Below, piece by piece: positions 38,537 through 46,843 of a stretch of 64,000 nt of DNA. Position numbers and translations under genes: made by a program. Positions within the stretch are counted from its first letter, which is position 1. Each line of letters starts with the position of its first letter. Origin of the DNA: Clostridia bacterium (GTDB lineage: Bacteria; Bacillota; Clostridia; UMGS1840); contig JAGAKI010000079.1 of assembly GCA_017625695.1 (NCBI GenBank), positions 2,312 to 66,311 on the forward strand, given 5' to 3'. Below the pieces are notes generated by a model. The model made no database searches, was not told the DNA's origin, and worked only from the letters and a program-made list of their open reading frames with translations.

Positions 38537-38882
38537 GGAAACCGGTGATTGTTTTTGTTGGATGAGATAGATTCTGATGCTATCTTTCATTTGTAGCGTT
38601 TTCCTCGATTCAAAAAGGTTTTTTGACACCTCATCAGTCACTACGTGACAGCTTCTCCTCCAAGGAGAAGCCTTTGTGCGGGGGTAACTGATTTTGCCTT
38701 CTCCTTGGAGGAAACCGGTGATTGTTTTTGTTGGAGGAGATAGATTCTGATGCTATCTTTCATTTGTAGCGTTATCCTCGATTCAAAAAGGTTTTTTGAC
38801 ACCTCATCAGTCACTGCGTGACAGCTTCTCCTCCCAGGAGAAGCCTTTGTGCGGGGGTAACTGATTTTGCCTTCTCCTTGGA
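38537..38882 (+). repeat. Tandem duplication of a 173-bp unit containing a REP-like palindrome
   Basis: ggaaaccggtgattg... starts at 38537 and 38710; units nearly identical. Confidence 0.9.
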
Positions 38883-39349
38883 GGAGAAGGGGGACCGCTT
38901 GCGGTGGATGAGGTGGAAAGGAAAACATTCATATGAATAGAATCAAGAATTCCAAACTTACTCTCAACTCACAAACTTTACGAAAAAATATGACAAAAGA
39001 GGAACGACATCTTTGGTATGATTTTTTAAAAAAACTTCCACTTACTGTGAAACGGCAGAAAGTATTTGGTAATTATATTGTTGATTTTTATATTTCATCA
39101 TGTAAGTTGGTCATTGAGCTTGATGGATCACAACATTATGAAGATGTTAATGCTTATAACGATGCTGTCAGAGATTCTTATTTCAACAAAAATCGAATTA
39201 CTGTTTTAAGATATTCAAATTCCGATGTCAATCTCAATTTTGATGGGGTATGCTCGGATATCTTAAATCATATTAATCATATTTCTTCGATTGATTTTTG
39301 ACACCTCATCAGTCACTGCGTGACAGCTTCTCCTCCAAGGAGAAGCCTT
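38625..39349. repeat. REP-like CACCTCATC...CTTCTCCTCCAAGGAGAAG palindromes around the DUF559 gene
   Basis: Copies at 38625-38674, 38798-38847 and 39300-39349 (plus) and 38869-38915 (minus); diverged copy at 43909-43963. Confidence 0.85.
38933..39301 (+). CDS. DUF559 / Vsr-like endonuclease domain protein
   Basis: LRKNMTKEERHLWY, RQKVFGNYIVDFY, LVIELDGSQH, RD, VLRYSN. Confidence 0.9.
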   Translation: MNRIKNSKLTLNSQTLRKNMTKEERHLWYDFLKKLPLTVKRQKVFGNYIVDFYISSCKLVIELDGSQHYEDVNAYNDAVRDSYFNKNRITVLRYSNSDVNLNFDGVCSDILNHINHISSIDF

Positions 39350-39411
39350 TTTTTGTTAGTTCTAAATGTTTCCTATTTTACTTCTTGTTTTATAAAAACT
39401 CTTATATACGA

Positions 39412-39443
39412 AAAAAGGCGGGACATAAAGTCCCGCCTTTTTT
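39412..39443. terminator. Bidirectional terminator ending the surface-protein/peptide operon
   Basis: aaaaaaggcgggac-ataaa-gtcccgcctttttt. Confidence 0.85.
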
Positions 39444-39473
39444 AATTCTGTTATTCAATTAATTAACAGGCAA

Positions 39474-39635
39474 TTAGATCTGAGAACCTTCGTCTAACAG
39501 AGCCATGTTGTAAGTAGTGGTGATTTTGCCACCGGAAGTAGTTACAACAGCGGTTTCTAACGGATTTTCGTAAGCGATTGCTTCGTTAGCCTGTAAGGAA
39601 ATAATTTCAACAGAAGGGCAAACATAATTTTTCAT
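39474..39635 (-). CDS. 53-aa peptide with YxxPxV leader (candidate RRE substrate); not in the ORF track
   Basis: MKNYVCPSVEIISLQANEAIAYENPLETAVVTTSGGKITTTYNMALLDEGSQI; AAAGGAGG RBS; followed by a terminator. Confidence 0.85.
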   Translation of the reverse strand: MKNYVCPSVEIISLQANEAIAYENPLETAVVTTSGGKITTTYNMALLDEGSQI

Positions 39636-39657
39636 CTCTATATATCCTCCTTTAAAA

Positions 39658-40515
39658 TTATTCAGCGATGGTTAAGGTGAAGTTGGTGTCAGCGATAACG
39701 GTATCGTTAGCGAAGAAATCTAATTCTTTTTCACCAGCATGAACGCCTTCTAAGATGATTTCAAAGGTACCATCCCAGTCACCGAAGGTGAAAGTGGTAG
39801 AACCTTCGTAATCTTTAACGGTGTCGCCGTTCATAGCACCATAGTATTTCTGAGCTCTTGCGCCTTCAACGGTAGATTCAGCAGTGAATACTACACCGTA
39901 GTTGGTAACGGTAGCATCAACTTTACCTGCACAGGTAATGGTGGTGCCAGCTGCAGTTGCAGAGAAGGGAGATTCGTCACCAGCGATTTCGATAGTGAAG
40001 TATGCGGGGCATTTTACAGAAGTAAAGTTAGCACCAGCAGCAACGCCTGCTACAGTATAACCAGAAGAAGTGGGGATTTTAGATGCGGTTAAAGCTTTGT
40101 CACCATAAGCAAAATCAGCTTCAGTTAATTTGGTAGCTGCATCAACTTTGTTAACAGTGTAAGTAATTGCTAATAAAGTACCTTCTTCAGTAACATAATT
40201 AGATAAGTCAGAGAAAGAAGCGATCATTTTAATCTGACCAGCTTTATTCTGGGTGTCATTCAGAACACAAGTAGCAAATTTATCGCCTAAAACTGCAGAA
40301 TCTTCAACATAAGTTGCAGCTTCAGTTAACAGAATGGAGTTGAAACCAGCACAAGCTTCAACATTGGTAACATAAATTTCAACAGTTGCAGTAGCGCCGT
40401 TATCTGTAATCACGGTATGCATACCACCGTCTTCATGAGGATCAGCAGCGAAAGATACCAGAGATAAAGAAGCCAGCATAGCCACTACTAATAAGAGTGA
40501 AAATACTTTTTTCAT
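39658..40515 (-). CDS. Secreted protein with cohesin-like beta domain
   Basis: Signal peptide ..VSFA; TVEIYVTN..GQIKMIASF..GTLLAITYTV pattern. Confidence 0.6.
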   Translation of the reverse strand: MKKVFSLLLVVAMLASLSLVSFAADPHEDGGMHTVITDNGATATVEIYVTNVEACAGFNSILLTEAATYVEDSAVLGDKFATCVLNDTQNKAGQIKMIASFSDLSNYVTEEGTLLAITYTVNKVDAATKLTEADFAYGDKALTASKIPTSSGYTVAGVAAGANFTSVKCPAYFTIEIAGDESPFSATAAGTTITCAGKVDATVTNYGVVFTAESTVEGARAQKYYGAMNGDTVKDYEGSTTFTFGDWDGTFEIILEGVHAGEKELDFFANDTVIADTNFTLTIAE

Positions 40516-40555
40516 TGTAATCAATTTCCTTTCAAAATTATAATTGAACTAAATC

Positions 40556-41479
40556 TTACAGATTATCATTGATGAAATCTGTACCGTAGTCATACAAGGA
40601 CAGACCGTTGTTTCCTAACAGAACGGCAATATCACCGCCATCGATGAATAAGTCATGTACAACGTCATAACCAGCAACAGTAGCGCCTTCAGTGATATCT
40701 AAACCGTTAACGTCCAACACTGTAGCAATGTCACTACCGTCGATAAAGAAGTCTTTTGCACCGATTACGTCACCGAACAGCATATCAACTGCGTCCATTT
40801 CAACATCTGCATCTTCAACAGTTGCATATTCCATATAGGGCAATGCAGCGTCTCTGGTGATAACAACAGCATATTCACCAGCTTCTAAACCTTCAAAGGT
40901 GTAGGTACCGTCAACGATTTCAACGGTTTCGATGGGGTTGATGATGAGTTCATCACCGTAGTTTTCAGCATAAGCAAGTGCTTCGTCCACAGTTACTAAG
41001 TGCGCAAATGTGCCGTATGCTGCTTTGTAAGCGTCTAAATCTTCCGGTGCAACGATTTCGTCAGCAACTAACATATCATAGTAGTCAGCTTCTACGAAAT
41101 TGTTAACGGAACCGCTTACGGTGTAGGTATCAGCTTCTTTTTCAAAGAAAATGGTACCAACTTCCTGTTTGTCGATGGCTTCGCCACCCATTACAACTTT
41201 AACGTTTTCAGTTAAGGGATCCATTAACTGGAAGGTAAAGCTGTCTGCTGCAGCCTGATCGATGTACTGGATAGAACCAACTTCGATAGTGTCGCCTTTG
41301 TAAGCAACGATGGTGGTCTGTTTGCCAGCATTCGCAGTAGCAGCGTCGCCGGATAAAGCTGCGGTATAGGTTTTGCCGTCTGCATTCAGAGCGATTTCAT
41401 CAGAAAAAGCTGCAAAAGAAGTCATAGACATGCTACCCATTACTGCTAAACCAGCGAGTAAAGCGATGAGTCTTTTCAT
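40556..41479 (-). CDS. Secreted protein with Ig-like X module and C-terminal dockerin-like duplicated Ca-binding motif
   Basis: DGTYTFEGLEAGEYAVVI; GDVIGAKDFFIDGSDIATVL / YDVVHDLFIDGGDIAVLL. Confidence 0.65.
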   Translation of the reverse strand: MKRLIALLAGLAVMGSMSMTSFAAFSDEIALNADGKTYTAALSGDAATANAGKQTTIVAYKGDTIEVGSIQYIDQAAADSFTFQLMDPLTENVKVVMGGEAIDKQEVGTIFFEKEADTYTVSGSVNNFVEADYYDMLVADEIVAPEDLDAYKAAYGTFAHLVTVDEALAYAENYGDELIINPIETVEIVDGTYTFEGLEAGEYAVVITRDAALPYMEYATVEDADVEMDAVDMLFGDVIGAKDFFIDGSDIATVLDVNGLDITEGATVAGYDVVHDLFIDGGDIAVLLGNNGLSLYDYGTDFINDNL

Positions 41480-41578: not shown

Positions 41579-42841
41579 TTACTGAGCGGATGCGTATGCA
41601 TAGTCACGCAGCGTCAGCATCAGCATAATTTCGGACATCAGCTGTTTTTCAACATCATTTTCTGCGTTCCAGGGATAGTTTGCGGGAGAAACGATAACCA
41701 TTCTCTGACCTGCTAACCACTGAACATCGCAGTTTAATGCTTCCGCAACAGCACGCAAGGGAACAAAGGTTCTGTCCTGCACGATTTCAGGAGCTACATC
41801 CATGGTTTTCTTCAGACCGTCATTGGTGTAGGTGGTGGAGCCAATCTGGAATACCAGTTTGGTTCTGCCGTTTTCAATGATGATTTCCTGAGTTTCTGCT
41901 ACATATTCTACTTTACATTTCAGTTCTTCTGCAATGTAACGCAGAGGAATCATAGTTCTGTCATCTTTGATATAGGGTTTTACTTCTTTGTTATCTTTAT
42001 CTACCCATTTTAAGGTACCATTTCCTACAGTACCGTAGTTATTTGCCTGCAAGAAGATTACATTTTCCGCTCTTAACTGTTTACGGGTTACCATATCAAG
42101 ATTTGCAGTACTGTCAGAAGTGATAACATCCTTCACACCAGTTACATCAGAAGAATCTGTTTTACCGTCAGGATAGTTAAAATCCACGGCACAACTCTGC
42201 ATACCATAGGAGTTAACTACCATCATACCGCCATAGACTAAATCGCTACTCTGCAATTTAAACTCTACAGGAGCATCAGACAATTTCTTCATAGTAATAC
42301 GAATAACTTCCAAACCATTTTCATCAGCCAATGCCTGGAATTTATCAGAAACAACAGAGTTAGGTGCTAACTGAGTATTCGTTATGCTAAATAATGCTAA
42401 AACACCATTCGCTGCTTTTGAACCTTTGAAAGACTGCCAATCTGCGATTTCTTCACCGGTTTCTAAGTCTTTTGCAATAATAGGACAGGATAAAGCTTCC
42501 AGTAAATCGGTAGTTACTTCTTTGGTGTCTTTATTAACAGGAGCAACTACTTCAGGATTGTAGGTAATTGTAGAAACAATCCCTTTGTATGTAGCGTTAT
42601 AGAGAGTGATATCTACGGTGAAGAATCCGTCTGCATCGGGAGCGGATACGTCAAATACAACTTTTGCCTTATCTGCTACCGGTGCCTGAGCAACCGGAGT
42701 TTCTTCTGCTCCTTCAGAGATTAACATAACATCGCCCTGAACTTCGGTCACAGTACCGTCTAATACTGCTTCTTCTGCAAATGCACAGCAGGATGCAGTC
42801 ATAACAGTTGCCAAAATCAAGGATAAAATTTTCTTTACCAT
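41579..42841 (-). CDS. Secreted protein with cohesin-like domain and copper-amine-oxidase-like N-terminal (stalk) domain
   Basis: FTVDITLYNA..ITYNPEVV; PYIKDDRTMIPLRYIAE, RTFVPLRAVAEAL. Confidence 0.7.
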   Translation of the reverse strand: MVKKILSLILATVMTASCCAFAEEAVLDGTVTEVQGDVMLISEGAEETPVAQAPVADKAKVVFDVSAPDADGFFTVDITLYNATYKGIVSTITYNPEVVAPVNKDTKEVTTDLLEALSCPIIAKDLETGEEIADWQSFKGSKAANGVLALFSITNTQLAPNSVVSDKFQALADENGLEVIRITMKKLSDAPVEFKLQSSDLVYGGMMVVNSYGMQSCAVDFNYPDGKTDSSDVTGVKDVITSDSTANLDMVTRKQLRAENVIFLQANNYGTVGNGTLKWVDKDNKEVKPYIKDDRTMIPLRYIAEELKCKVEYVAETQEIIIENGRTKLVFQIGSTTYTNDGLKKTMDVAPEIVQDRTFVPLRAVAEALNCDVQWLAGQRMVIVSPANYPWNAENDVEKQLMSEIMLMLTLRDYAYASAQ

Positions 42842-42862: not shown

Positions 42863-43459
42863 TTACTGAATTTTGTTTCTGCCCAATGGGGACAGGGACA
42901 ATCGAACCTCTGCCAACACTGCGGATTCTGCTGAATTTCCGAATTCCCAGAGTGCATCGGCAGGAGTGATGACAACAATTCGTTCCTGCTGCAGCCATTC
43001 TACAGCTCTTCCTAACGCAACAGACACAAATCGGACAGGAACAAACGTTCTGTCCTCCAAAATCTCTGCTGCACAATCCATTTCGTAAGTCACTCCATTG
43101 AGATTGTAAGTTTTTTCATCAACTGTCAGCTCCATTACGGTTTCACCCAAAGTAATGGAAATGCCTCTTGTTGCCGGGTCATATGTAACGGTTGCACCCA
43201 ACTCTTCTGTAATGAAGCGAAGAGGAACCATAGTTCTATCGTCTTTAATATAGGGTTTGACTGCCATGTTTCCACGGTCAATCCACTTTAACGTTCCATC
43301 GGACACGGTGGCATAATTATCTATCTGCAGAAAGATAACGTCAGCTTTCCGTAAGCGAACAGCTTGTTCCGCCTCGGTTTCCACAATATCCGCAGCAAAA
43401 ACACCCACTGACATGGAGCAAGCCAGAGCCATAAGCAACAGGAAAAATCTCTTCACCAT
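42863..43459 (-). CDS. Secreted copper-amine-oxidase-like N-terminal (stalk) domain protein
   Basis: PYIKDDRTMVPLRFITEELG, RTFVPVRFV; paralogous to the C-terminal half of the next gene. Confidence 0.85.
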   Translation of the reverse strand: MVKRFFLLLMALACSMSVGVFAADIVETEAEQAVRLRKADVIFLQIDNYATVSDGTLKWIDRGNMAVKPYIKDDRTMVPLRFITEELGATVTYDPATRGISITLGETVMELTVDEKTYNLNGVTYEMDCAAEILEDRTFVPVRFVSVALGRAVEWLQQERIVVITPADALWEFGNSAESAVLAEVRLSLSPLGRNKIQ

Positions 43460-43908
43460 TGGCTTACACCTCCTACAATCCATAGACAATTAGCGATTTT
43501 ACTATGGTTATTATAGCACAGCGATTTTTTTTTGTAAACCCTTTTTCCTAAAAAACCTAACTTTTTTTTGTAAAAATACCAACTTGTTTTTTGTATAAAT
43601 TGCACAAAGATTTTTTTTACTTTCGTGATATTCTACTGTTTCCACAAAGAATTCCACATTTATAGTGGATTACTTTTTTGTTACAAATTTTTTTCCACAA
43701 AAATGATGAATTTACCTGTGGAATTTGTAGAAATTTTTTTTCAGATATATCATTTTTGTATCATTCTTATGGAAATTTTCTTTGATTTGATAGAATTTTG
43801 CTATACAATTATATATATAGGGGGAACGATGCTTCTGCCGTTTGCAGAATTTTTTGTCAAATGATGCAGACATCGGATTCCATCAAGTTTTCTCGTTGGA
43901 AGGGGTTC

Positions 43909-44335
43909 CACCTCATCCGTCAAAACCTGAGGTTTTGACACCTTCTTTGCAAGGAGAAGGCTTGCGAGGGGGGCGGTCTATGTTCTTTTGCAAACCGCTA
44001 CGCGGTGCAGAAAAAGGGCATAGAATCAATCAATCAAGCCCGCAGGGGTTACCCGAAGACGTACGCCGGTACGTCGAGAGGCTTGATTGGTTCATAGCAA
44101 AAGGCATTTTAATCAAAATTTGTGACAACAAATTTTCACCTTAGAAAATAATAATACCAAGAGTGTGTATGCCGTTTGCGGTCTATGTTCTTTTGCAAGC
44201 CGCTATACGGTGCAGGAAAAGGGTTCGGAATTAACAAACTGACCCCGAAGCTGTACTCAGGTACTGCGAGAGGGGAGGTTTGTTGATAGCAACAAGCATT
44301 TTCAATCAAATTTCGTTTTTACGAAATTTCACCTT
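43909..44335 (+). repeat. Composite intergenic repeat cluster: one CCTCATCC REP and two ~205-bp units carrying GTAC hairpins
   Basis: gcggtctatgttcttttgcaa at 43973 and 44178; hairpin cores at 44053 and 44245. Confidence 0.75.
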
Positions 44336-44382: not shown

Positions 44383-45993
44383 TTACAAGCCGTCGGTGAT
44401 GATTTTTTTGTGTTCTACCCTGATACAACGGTCTGCCATATCAAAGGCTGCTTGCTTATGAGAAATAATGATGCAGGATTTTCCGGGGATGGAACGGATG
44501 TTTTGCAAGACTTTGGCTTCGGTTGCTTCATCTAAGGCTGAGGTACATTCATCCAGCAGGAAGAGGGGAGCGTCCAGGTAAACCGCTCTTGCAATGGCAA
44601 GACGCTGCACCTGTCCCTCAGATAAACCAAGTCCTTTTTCGCCAAGGACGGTATCCATTCCCTGAGGTAAGGTCTGAATGAAATCATAGATATCTGCAGT
44701 TTTGGCAGCTTCGATGATTTTTTCTTCGTCTATGTTACGGTAGAACGCAATATTTTCACGGATGGTACCGGAGAGAATCATATTTCCCTGAGGAACATAT
44801 GCCACTTCGCCAAAGCAGGACACTTCTCCGGAGGTGGGTTTTAAAATTCCCATAATCAGTTTTAAAAAGGTGCTTTTTCCAATGCCGGAAATACCGCCAA
44901 TGGCGATAAATTCCCCGTGTCTCATGGTGAAGTCGGTATGCTCAAACACAGTTTCTTCCCCGTAAGCAAAGCTCATATTTTGAATCTGCACCAACGCTGA
45001 TTCATTTTTGCTTAGCAAAGACTTACGCTCATCCGGCGACAGATTTTCCAAATCCATCAGCCGTTCTGCGGAAGCGATGGTGGAAAAATACTGGGGTACG
45101 ACGGAGGATAAATCTTTCACCGGAGTCTGCACCTGATTAAGCAACTGTAAAATTGCGGTCAGGGTACCGAAGGTCATCAGCCCCAAAGACAGTCTCCAGG
45201 CACAGTAACCCAAAGCGATATAGTAGCTTCCGGTCAGTGCTAAATAGAATAGTATATTCATCAGGATGCTGATGTAGCTTCGTTTGATGGTGAATTTAAA
45301 ATGAAGAAGCTGGAATTCTCTGGCGTGATTGATTACTGCATCTTCGGTACGGTAAGCTTTGATTACCAGAAGATTCTGCAGAATTTCCTGCATAAAGGAT
45401 TTGGTTTTGCCGTCAGTTTCCATACATTTTTTGTGGAGTTTTTTCATACGGGAGGAATAGAGTCTTGCCCCAAAGAAAATCATGGGACAAAGCAACAGAC
45501 ACACCAGTGCAAACCATTTGTCCAGACGGAACAATTCATAGAAGCTTAAGACAATCCGAAACAGCAGAGACACCAGGTTGGGAATCAACAGCATCACACC
45601 TGTGACAATCACATTGACGTCAGAATGGATCAGATTAATAAGCTCTCCGGAATGAATGTTGCTGATTTGCTGCCAGTCACGCCCCAGACAAACACCAAAG
45701 ACGTATTCTTTCAGACGAATGGCATATTTTCCGCTCACACGGGCATTCATTAACGAATAGACCACCTGACTTCCCAAAAGCAACAAAAGCATCACAAGCA
45801 AATGTGCAATCTGACCATACAGACTGCCTTCCTTTGCGTGAGATGCAATGTCTAATACTTCTTTGGAAACAATGGCAAACCGAACACCCAGGTAGGACAT
45901 CAGCATCCCAAGCAGGGTGAGAACTGCCAGTTTCCCATACATTTTTGCACCGGTTCGCTGACACAACCATTTAATTTGTTTCTGATTTTTCAT
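44383..45993 (-). CDS. ABC exporter, fused permease and ATPase
   Basis: N-terminal TM helices; GISGIGKST, LSEGQVQR, LLDECTSALD, ISH. Confidence 0.92.
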   Translation of the reverse strand: MKNQKQIKWLCQRTGAKMYGKLAVLTLLGMLMSYLGVRFAIVSKEVLDIASHAKEGSLYGQIAHLLVMLLLLLGSQVVYSLMNARVSGKYAIRLKEYVFGVCLGRDWQQISNIHSGELINLIHSDVNVIVTGVMLLIPNLVSLLFRIVLSFYELFRLDKWFALVCLLLCPMIFFGARLYSSRMKKLHKKCMETDGKTKSFMQEILQNLLVIKAYRTEDAVINHAREFQLLHFKFTIKRSYISILMNILFYLALTGSYYIALGYCAWRLSLGLMTFGTLTAILQLLNQVQTPVKDLSSVVPQYFSTIASAERLMDLENLSPDERKSLLSKNESALVQIQNMSFAYGEETVFEHTDFTMRHGEFIAIGGISGIGKSTFLKLIMGILKPTSGEVSCFGEVAYVPQGNMILSGTIRENIAFYRNIDEEKIIEAAKTADIYDFIQTLPQGMDTVLGEKGLGLSEGQVQRLAIARAVYLDAPLFLLDECTSALDEATEAKVLQNIRSIPGKSCIIISHKQAAFDMADRCIRVEHKKIITDGL

Positions 45994-46465
45994 TTTGTTG
46001 TTCTCCAAGCATATGACGATACTTGCGTAAACGGAAATTTACAATCTTCCACCGCCAGGGCATCAGCAGATGCCAGATTCTTACGTACATCCAGTAGAGA
46101 GGACTTTTCACAGAATGTTCCTTTCCCCAGCGGGTATAGGAGGTGACAACGCCGAAAATCTGCTCCCGGTTGACCGGAGGCTCCGGCTTCAACTCGTTAT
46201 CGCCCGCAATGAGGTAGGTGCCGTCCTTTTGAATTTTTAAGACCCGATGGAGAATGTATCTCCCATCGGTACGGCGATGAAAGGTGATATCATATTTTTT
46301 GATTTTTCCGGCAGGAGACAGGGTAACCGTATCCCGTCGGGTATGGAGCATAGGGTACATACTGTTTCCGGTAACAGTCAGTCGGACAGTATCTCCCCGC
46401 CGGAGCAATTCTTCCACCAACAGTCCCATTTGCCGGACATCGGCAATTTTTCTCGGAGCTTCCAT
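45971..46465 (-). CDS. S24/S26 family peptidase-like protein
   Basis: VTGNSMYPML, YILHRV, AGDN (Ser/His variant). Confidence 0.85.
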   Translation of the reverse strand: MEAPRKIADVRQMGLLVEELLRRGDTVRLTVTGNSMYPMLHTRRDTVTLSPAGKIKKYDITFHRRTDGRYILHRVLKIQKDGTYLIAGDNELKPEPPVNREQIFGVVTSYTRWGKEHSVKSPLYWMYVRIWHLLMPWRWKIVNFRLRKYRHMLGEQQNEKSETN

Positions 46466-46469
46466 ACTG

Positions 46470-46727
46470 TTACTCCATTAAATTGTTATCGGACAGGATT
46501 TTGATGAAATTTTCAATATCCCGCATTGCAGTTGCTTCATCAATGTCATATTCTGCGGTCATTTTTGCACACAGGGCAGGAAGTTCGATGCCTTCCTGGA
46601 GAAGTTCCCACAAAAAGGCTCCGGTTTCGTTTACGGTAATCATAGCAGTGAAATCTACCTGACCTACGGGAATTACAATGTAGCTTCCGGCTACTTCTTT
46701 GAGCATAAAGCCTTCTTTTAATTTCAT
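46470..46727 (-). CDS. PqqD family protein (RiPP recognition element)
   Basis: MKLKEGFMLKEVAG..VNETGAFLWELL..EYDIDEATAMRDIENFI. Confidence 0.9.
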   Translation of the reverse strand: MKLKEGFMLKEVAGSYIVIPVGQVDFTAMITVNETGAFLWELLQEGIELPALCAKMTAEYDIDEATAMRDIENFIKILSDNNLME

Positions 46728-46843
46728 AAAAAATCCTCTTTTCTTCAGAATGGGGGATTGCAGCACATTCTGTCAGATGTGCAGCGTCAAGCAATATCAT
46801 GCTCTCTCTCCAAAGGGATTACCCTTCGGGAGAAAACAGGCAA

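Follow-up and report, generated by a model that had tools for sequence, protein, structure and literature searches.

A leader-bearing 53-residue peptide encoded behind a surface-protein domain in uncultured ruminant-gut Clostridia, and its possible maturation by a PqqD-S24-ABC module

Peptide pheromones and class II bacteriocins rely on a short leader, a dedicated peptidase and an ATP-binding cassette (ABC) exporter, and SipW is the example of a dedicated signal peptidase of the endoplasmic reticulum (ER)/archaeal type whose substrates are matrix proteins. To our knowledge, genome-mining tools flag loci of the kind described here only as “RRE-containing”, i.e., as carrying a recognition element (RRE) for peptides that are made by the ribosome and modified after translation (RiPPs). 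In lasso peptides, according to passages of PMC10368454, the leader motif Y-x-x-P-x-L spans positions -17 to -12, and HprK-type kinases phosphorylate lasso precursors with the aid of the B1 RRE. Excerpts of a preprint (bioRxiv 10.1101/2025.01.13.632881) describe, in gut metagenomes, a protein family with signal peptides that has PqqD and Peptidase_S24 genes on its flanks. The present report concerns pep53, a gene for a 53-residue peptide in a 64,000-nucleotide stretch of DNA (hereafter, the window) from a Clostridia bacterium of lineage UMGS1840 (assembly GCA_017625695.1, contig JAGAKI010000079.1, positions 2,312 to 66,311, forward strand). The gene closes an operon for surface proteins, and on the same strand, at a distance of 4.7-7.1 kb upstream, come genes for a PqqD-family RRE protein, an S24/S26-type serine peptidase and an ABC exporter (the PqqD-S24-ABC module). 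With a probability of roughly 55%, we propose that pep53 encodes a precursor that this module processes to a small peptide, abundant and exported, and whose core would be paired with the C-terminal domain of the secreted protein encoded just upstream, as a subunit or adaptor of a surface assembly.

That pep53 is a real protein-coding gene under strong constraint is clear from several kinds of evidence. It occupies positions 39474..39635 of the minus strand (53 codons and a stop) and its translation is MKNYVCPSVEIISLQANEAIAYENPLETAVVTTSGGKITTTYNMALLDEGSQI. A Shine-Dalgarno sequence, AAAGGAGG (39646..39653, minus strand), is situated 10 nt 5' of the ATG, within the 22-nt gap behind the upstream gene, and some 30 nt beyond the stop codon begins a hairpin of 14 pairs (39411..39443) that resembles an intrinsic terminator, has A/T runs on both sides, could terminate both strands and would mark the end of the operon. 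An earlier note, made from the letters of the window, had described this open reading frame (ORF) with exactly this translation, as well as a ribosome-binding site and a terminator behind it, and had likened the codon choice to that of ribosomal protein genes. This, too, is borne out: the codon adaptation index (CAI) of pep53 is 0.893, against a range of 0.60-0.87 and a median of 0.757 for 17 ribosomal-protein genes of the same genome, and in a comparison with the 1239 ORFs that are 200 aa or longer it ranks above 99.9%. Among the neighbours, the two preceding operon genes, surf288 and surf307, reach 0.87 and 0.81, respectively, and the PqqD, S24 and ABC genes 0.65, 0.36 and 0.53. The protein database holds 28 homologues (74-98% identity), a paralogue of 89% identity is present on another contig (C3) of the same genome, and the peptide is encoded at eleven loci of metagenome-assembled genomes of uncultured ruminant-gut Clostridia. 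Over 13 loci, the ratio of nonsynonymous to synonymous polymorphism (pN/pS) for the whole gene is 0.22, and the variable alignment columns are distributed 13/7/30 over codon positions 1/2/3. Coding is concluded from the homologues, the paralogue, pN/pS, the codon-position pattern and the codon usage. Nothing but its short length would speak for a spurious ORF or non-coding sequence, a reading that is refuted, for practical purposes, by the conservation pattern, the paralogue, the homologues, the codon bias and the pairing with domain loci described below. A search of Pfam and NCBIfam with E up to 10 placed the peptide in no family, and a search of the ESM Atlas returned only unnamed clusters (0.88, under the level at which the tool treats a match as more than a lead).

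The peptide divides into a leader and a core. The leader, residues 1-21 (39573..39635, minus strand), has the form M-K-x-Y4-x-x-P7-x-V/L9-E10 ... L14 ... E18-x-I20-A21 and a pN/pS of 0.47 over the 13 loci, versus 0.11 for the near-invariant residues 22-53 (YENPLETAVVTTSGGKITTTYNMALLDEGSQI; 39477..39572, minus strand), which form the putative mature peptide, with a presumed cleavage point between the two. The break that the earlier note had placed after A21 coincides with this switch from variable to near-invariant sequence. Within the leader, M1, K2, Y4 and P7 are invariant in 29 sequences and position 9 is V, L or F. From Y4 to the presumed leader end at residue 20-21 there are 17-18 residues, and the spacing rule of lasso leaders fits an end at that point. 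With this lasso-like spacing, and with a motif found across the class, the note’s proposal of a lasso/RRE-type leader in the first 21 residues has held up. Its “YENPLE”, if meant as the RRE motif, is probably wrong, given that the class-wide motif is Y4-x-x-P7-x-V/L9 and that Y22 is lost in the sister genus. The core is rich in Thr and Ser, has four acidic residues versus one Lys, and ends in Ile. Peptides from the main loci of different species in the genus keep 92-100% identity, and the proteins encoded upstream only 39-74%. No GG-type cleavage motif is present at the leader end; the G35-G36 of the core is invariant only at G36 and lies deep inside the conserved region.

The tightest genomic link of pep53, which the earlier note had missed, is to a domain at the C-terminus of the secreted protein whose gene lies upstream. 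At all 13 loci first collected, the peptide gene stands behind a gene for a secreted protein of 276-874 aa, and only the C-terminal ~100 residues are common to all of these proteins. In the window, the domain comprises approximately residues 185-288 of surf288 (39661..39972, minus strand), belongs to no Pfam or NCBIfam family and, given its shared occurrence, its adjacency and its co-folding, is the proposed partner of the core. A profile of the domain identified 31 representative proteins in 1.84 billion, and in 28 of the 31 listed, i.e., all except P0054, P0057 and P0060, the domain reaches the C-terminus or stops a few residues short of it. In a family of 16 genomes, all 11 that belong to the pep53 genus, our own included, have the domain, and none of the five sister-genus genomes does at E up to 1e-5. 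A pep53 homologue follows 15 of the 16 domain loci within 26-32 nt; the remaining locus (L111, G360:C40) encodes a 572-aa secreted leucine-rich repeat (LRR; BspA-like) protein with a divergent copy of the domain and no peptide gene behind it. The N-terminal modules to which the domain is attached are varied, and include cohesin-like, carbohydrate-binding module (CBM)-like and LRR types. A metagenome scan for the domain, made with an alignment of closer sequences, yielded 144 pattern matches and no confirmed relative.

Co-folding of surf288 residues 180-288 with core residues 22-53 gave a score of 0.58 (runs of 0.68, 0.58 and 0.58) versus 0.02, 0.01 and 0.00 for three controls; the predicted local distance difference test (pLDDT) value of the partner was 67 or higher, and 85% or more of the contacts were shared. 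In calibration, the mark was reached by 116 of 157 solved complexes and by 2 of 215 mismatched pairs, and scores at or below 0.60 comprised just 18 of the 157 solved complexes and both mismatches. Donor-strand complementation serves as a working analogy for the proposed pairing. As in cohesin-dockerin and S-layer homology (SLH) anchoring, one conserved terminal module is here found on many N-terminal modules, and surf288 itself may have a cohesin-like domain. Unlike in those systems, the proposed partner is a separately exported 32-mer and the domain is outside the families of Pfam and NCBIfam.

The leader also occurs well beyond the pep53 family. A DNA pattern for M-K-x-Y-x-x-P-x-(L/V/I/F/M)-E, scanned in 401 Clostridia genomes, gave 79 matches in 61 genomes, versus 15 matches for the reversed pattern used as a control. 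The matches encode peptides of 26-62 aa with GGAGG-type ribosome-binding sites, and positions that the pattern does not impose are conserved among the 32 distinct peptides (L14 in 27, E18 in 24, I20 in 23 and A21 in 29), A21 being present in 19 of the 22 that lie outside the pep53 family. An S24 homologue was found in 48 of the 61 leader-positive genomes versus 99 of the 339 remaining scored genomes. Outside the pep53 genus, moreover, 13 genomes of six families have a leader match within 10 kb of an S24 gene and in the same orientation, at a distance of 1-3 kb (G381 and G179; G096; G378; G296, G369, G002, G044, G244 and G322; G014 and G087; G159); since the genomes are related, such counts overstate independence, and the six families are the safer number. 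The earlier note had suggested looking for similar ORFs near homologous clusters, and these 13 genomes do supply comparable leader peptides. Its proposed link of the peptide to the PqqD protein, the peptidase and the ABC exporter stands as far as genomic association goes, through same-leader peptides near homologous modules in six other Clostridia families. Taken as a whole, the conservation of the leader and its proximity to the module suggest that pep53 is one family in a larger class, in which small peptides with this leader go together with the module.

Genome-wide scans of our own genome for leader ORFs returned only the two pep53 copies, and none of the small ORFs in the 900-bp gap from the ABC gene to the surface operon is leader-like. 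At 19 loci from other families, the 1.2 kb directly upstream of PqqD contained no small ORF with a leader; the leader peptides of other-family clusters sit elsewhere. In the sister genus, a 53%-identical peptide is encoded behind a 275-aa secreted protein, adjoining a surf307 homologue. In family f12, orphan leader peptides (L087, L088, L086 and L055) have the core stretch “...(V/I)T(T/V/I)Y.(V/I/M)..F/L...” in common with pep53 and stand alone, e.g., beside ychF, far from the module of their own genome.

The module itself follows genes for Wzz, a tyrosine autokinase (TyrK) and CpsB, i.e., capsule genes. Its first member, PqqD98 (46470..46766, minus strand; PF05402, E 4e-16), is the proposed leader-binding chaperone. 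The nearest solved sequences are lasso B1 proteins, namely TbiB1 (5v1u, E 1.6e-5), 9x90_B and TfuB1, and the lasso PqqD models of NCBIfam match it only below their cut-offs. The proposed leader peptidase (45971..46465, minus strand; PF00717, E 2.6e-6) matches TIGR02228, the archaeal-type signal peptidase I model, at E 4.9e-8 and 33 bits, below the cut-off of 51.85; a search against solved structures with E up to 1 gave no sequence match, and by inspection the protein has no N-terminal membrane anchor. Its boxes G33-x-S35-M36-x-P38, H73-R74 and G88-D89 are invariant in 18 homologues. The boxes G-x-S-M-x-P, H-R and G-D-N are those of the Ser-His (ER/archaeal, SipW-like) signal peptidases. The exporter (44383..46008, minus strand) consists of a transmembrane domain and a nucleotide-binding domain (PF00664 and PF00005 only); no C39 peptidase domain was found with Pfam or NCBIfam, and the protein aligns to bacteriocin/NHLP exporter models only from model position ~125-140 onward. 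Of the 30 best-scoring S24 loci, 29 have a PqqD gene as a neighbour and 28 an ABC gene. A second PqqD-family gene of our genome (C58:24540-24887; 115 aa, PF05402 at 35 bits) stands alone, with neither a peptidase nor a leader peptide nearby.

How, then, does the locus compare with the described systems? As in the split-B lasso arrangement (TbiA/TbiB1), the leader carries a Y-x-x-P-x-L motif ~17 residues before its end, and a stand-alone PqqD-family RRE and an ABC exporter are encoded; like the phosphorylated lasso peptides, which have HprK-type kinases, the sibling clusters contain HprK-like genes. Unlike in lasso systems, a Ser-His enzyme of the S24/S26 type is the candidate leader peptidase, I-A takes the place of T-x at the leader end, and nothing in the 32-residue core indicates a macrolactam. 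No match to the B2 transglutaminase-type protease (PF13471) was obtained in our genome, which is 98% complete, with E up to 0.01, and the asparagine-synthetase-type cyclase (PF00733) gave only three short matches (21-27 bits over 39-86 profile positions, in frames of 339-367 aa), none of them near either peptide locus. A lasso peptide was therefore rejected. Similarity to SipW-type peptidases is seen in the invariant catalytic boxes, the weak TIGR02228 match and the surface-component genes nearby; unlike those enzymes, the present peptidase has no membrane anchor, and pep53, lacking a hydrophobic signal sequence, would presumably be presented by the RRE. The peptide also recalls those with double-glycine leaders in being ribosomal, with a short N-terminal leader whose removal is tied to ABC export, but here a separate RRE would recognise it and a separate serine peptidase would cleave it; that class was rejected given the absence of a GG/GA motif and of a C39 domain in the ABC protein. 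Sec secretion was likewise rejected, as no hydrophobic stretch is evident by eye (no predictor was used) in residues 1-21. Finally, the PqqD-Peptidase_S24 pair is the same as in antiSMASH “RRE-containing” clusters and in the gut Firmicutes of bioRxiv 10.1101/2025.01.13.632881, as far as the excerpts of that preprint go; these point to signal-peptide-bearing proteins as the substrate, unlike here, and describe neither leader peptides nor a C-terminal domain cassette. A search of the literature (subscription journals being outside its scope) found nothing describing a substrate of the PqqD-S24-ABC module or the M-K-x-Y-x-x-P-x-L-E leader class.

On the proposed reading, the PqqD-family RRE encoded 7 kb upstream would bind the pep53 leader, the cytoplasmic Ser-His S24/S26 enzyme would cut the leader off near A21/Y22, and the C39-less ABC transporter would export the 32-residue core. 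Outside the cell, the core may associate with the ~100-residue C-terminal domain of the surf288-type protein, so that the peptide would act as an adaptor or subunit in an assembly on the cell surface, strongly expressed and encoded next to the capsule locus; the domain, on cohesin-like, CBM-like and LRR proteins alike, would be an anchoring or assembly module. As the locus encodes no cyclase, B2 protease or other tailoring enzyme, the product is probably linear, possibly unmodified, and may be a beta-hairpin. The pep53 system is thus probably a case in which an RRE guides the maturation of a peptide, but the leader peptidase is of another kind, a cyclase is absent and the role is structural. 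Of the alternatives that the earlier note had offered, a structural surface peptide is the better supported, if indirectly, because the adjacency to the domain is also seen at loci that lack the module, and because of the co-fold and the codon bias. It is tempting to go further and to suggest, quite tentatively and at well below even odds, that PqqD-S24-ABC constitutes a leader-guided, Sec-independent route, and that an unmodified 32-residue beta-hairpin is a non-covalent subunit of an undescribed C-terminal anchoring or assembly domain.

Several observations weigh against this proposal. An S24 homologue occurs in 147 of 400 sampled Clostridia genomes, so the module is far more widespread than the pep53 family, and in the pep53 genus it forms a separate transcription unit behind the capsule genes, with the surface operon set apart by a gap of ~900 bp and its own promoter. 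Four cassettes (L003, L011, L012 and L013) lie away from any module, and action of the module in trans must consequently be assumed for them. Nor is the pairing universal, given the f12 cores without a gene for the partner domain and the domain locus without a peptide. The co-fold falls into the tool’s “weak support” category, a band in which a pass is more often wrong than right unless the pairing was likely beforehand. Residue 19, the would-be P3 position of a signal-peptidase site, is Ala in 15, Asn in 7, Arg in 4 and Asp in 3 of the 32 peptides and hence not always small, which leaves the putative cleavage site near A21/Y22 uncertain. As to expression, positions 39469-39638 are matched, with one mismatch, by a single contig of 170 nt in a metatranscriptome library of the gut; the data came from four runs of one study (7-15% of sampled words) and consist of contigs free of strand, level and transcript ends, so that, with DNA carry-over possible, the contig is a weak hint of expression, and stretches left uncovered say nothing either way. 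The last point, that the core may be modified, arises from genes in the sibling clusters and in our own genome.

In families f4, f37 and f82, the order is PqqD-S24-ABC, a secreted protein of 315-361 aa, the peptide and an HprK-like protein, with the PqqD or ABC gene undetected in some loci; in f4 and f82 the HprK-like gene is followed by one for an SLH protein and then by Wzz. In f27 and f56, a radical SAM/SPASM enzyme is encoded ahead of Cys-rich peptides, followed by an HprK-like protein, S24 and ABC, and in f16 a 31-aa peptide precedes an HprK-like protein and S24. The radical SAM clusters (L077 in G381, L078 in G179 and L079 in G096, the first also with an NTP_transf_5 protein) probably produce thioether-type RiPPs with the same module for leader removal and export. 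One leader/peptidase/exporter logic serves both tailored and apparently untailored cores. It follows that the pep53 core might be tailored once the RRE has bound, before cleavage and export, through Ser/Thr phosphorylation by an HprK-like enzyme or glycosylation by capsule enzymes, with the modification carrying the function. The HprK-like gene stands directly behind the peptide in all six of these families, and our own genome (C46:96910-99409) encodes an HprK-like homologue (313 aa, E 3.1e-35) immediately behind an SLH-domain protein of 501 aa, a pair that also follows the leader peptides of f4 and f82. The action of such kinases on lasso precursors, as in the passages of PMC10368454 cited above, the Thr/Ser-rich core and the position of the module behind Wzz-TyrK-CpsB would all suit this explanation. 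However, neither pep53 locus of this genus has a tailoring gene, the HprK-like proteins match curated families (ScmC/HprK-related) weakly and far below the cut-offs (E 0.0025 to 2.6e-9), and the core ends in Ile, not in the Ser of the f4 peptides; a modified RiPP is thus rather unlikely.

Two further explanations dispense with either the module or the surface protein. The peptide could be a translationally coupled small protein of the cytoplasm that serves, ahead of secretion of the upstream-encoded protein or in its course, as a chaperone or targeting factor for the C-terminal domain, independently of PqqD, S24 and ABC. This would account for the tight spacing of 22-32 nt behind the domain, which is kept at module-distant loci, and is compatible with the lack, by inspection, of a Sec signal peptide and with a co-fold that involves the domain. 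Yet it leaves unexplained both the class-wide leader in PqqD/S24/ABC clusters of six other families and the faster evolution of the N-terminal third, and all 11 genomes of the genus have the cassette and, where searched, the module as well. It, too, must be considered improbable. Less probable still is a bacteriocin or a signalling peptide that the module would secrete and that has no physical tie to the upstream protein. The leader, peptidase and ABC exporter match the pheromone and class II bacteriocin logic, related cores stand alone in f12, and the PqqD/Peptidase_S24 neighbourhood is treated as an antimicrobial-peptide locus in excerpts of bioRxiv 10.1101/2025.01.13.632881. Unlike diversifying bacteriocins, however, the core is acidic and hardly varies from species to species; the adjacent genes include none for immunity, a receptor kinase or a regulator, and a codon bias at the level of ribosomal proteins suggests stoichiometric, structural amounts.

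The surface operon that pep53 closes comprises five genes, all on the minus strand. Ahead of it lies a sigma-70-like promoter (43510..43538; TTTACA-17-TATAAT, TG-extended, 11/12), assigned from its consensus match only. The first two genes encode secreted Cu_amine_oxidN1 proteins (42863..43489, PF07833, E 9.6e-33; and 41579..42841, 420 aa, PF07833, E 3.4e-31), followed by secreted surf307 (40556..41479) and surf288 (39658..40524). The AlphaFold2 model of surf288 has two beta domains (pLDDT 71.7), of which the N-terminal one, at about residues 33-126, is possibly cohesin-like; Foldseek matches of the whole model in the PDB are mostly cohesins (E 4e-6 to 4e-4), with TM-scores of 0.24-0.55 at that pLDDT, and the protein matches no Pfam family, cohesin included. 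At its C-terminus, surf307 has, by eye, two dockerin-like repeats, and its sister-genus homologue (L089:6676-7821) has clearer duplicated “GDIDxNxEIGSRD” segments. Together with the cohesin-like domain of surf288, these repeats hint at a non-cellulosomal cohesin-dockerin pair, with no Pfam dockerin match. The CAI values of surf288, surf307 and the 420-aa Cu_amine_oxidN1 protein (0.74-0.87) are at or near the ribosomal-protein level; these proteins are probably among the most abundant of the cell, and perhaps form an S-layer-like coat.

In our own genome, cassette L003 (C3:1-2570) consists of a 427-aa secreted protein and the peptide at a contig end, adjoining a transposase-like fragment (2001-2570), which suggests that the cassette moves or duplicates. 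A DUF559 endonuclease-like gene (38933-39301, plus strand; PF04480, E 1e-26) converges on the pep53 terminator, and in an unrelated family (L045) a 52%-identical DUF559 gene adjoins PqqD. Finally, intergenic repeats (38641-38928, 43842-44144 and 44176-44286), with spurious translations that contain “...SMFFCKPL.GA.KG..IN...” and “...PPHP...LQGEG...”, lie on either side of the surface operon and take up the 900-bp gap that follows the ABC gene; such strings also occur beside the module in another family, as at L045.

Naming the substrate class, i.e., the M-K-x-Y-x-x-P-x-L-E...E-x-I-A peptides that gene callers skip, would make the function of a very common gut module testable. In the case of pep53, what the RRE machinery helps to secrete may be no antibiotic but a structural peptide made in abundance, and the unrecognised C-terminal domain with a peptide partner of its own may be a surface-anchoring device of uncultured ruminant-gut Clostridia. 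If true, this would represent a new Gram-positive way to build or anchor a surface layer, in which the recognition machinery of RiPPs is used for structure and not for natural-product chemistry.

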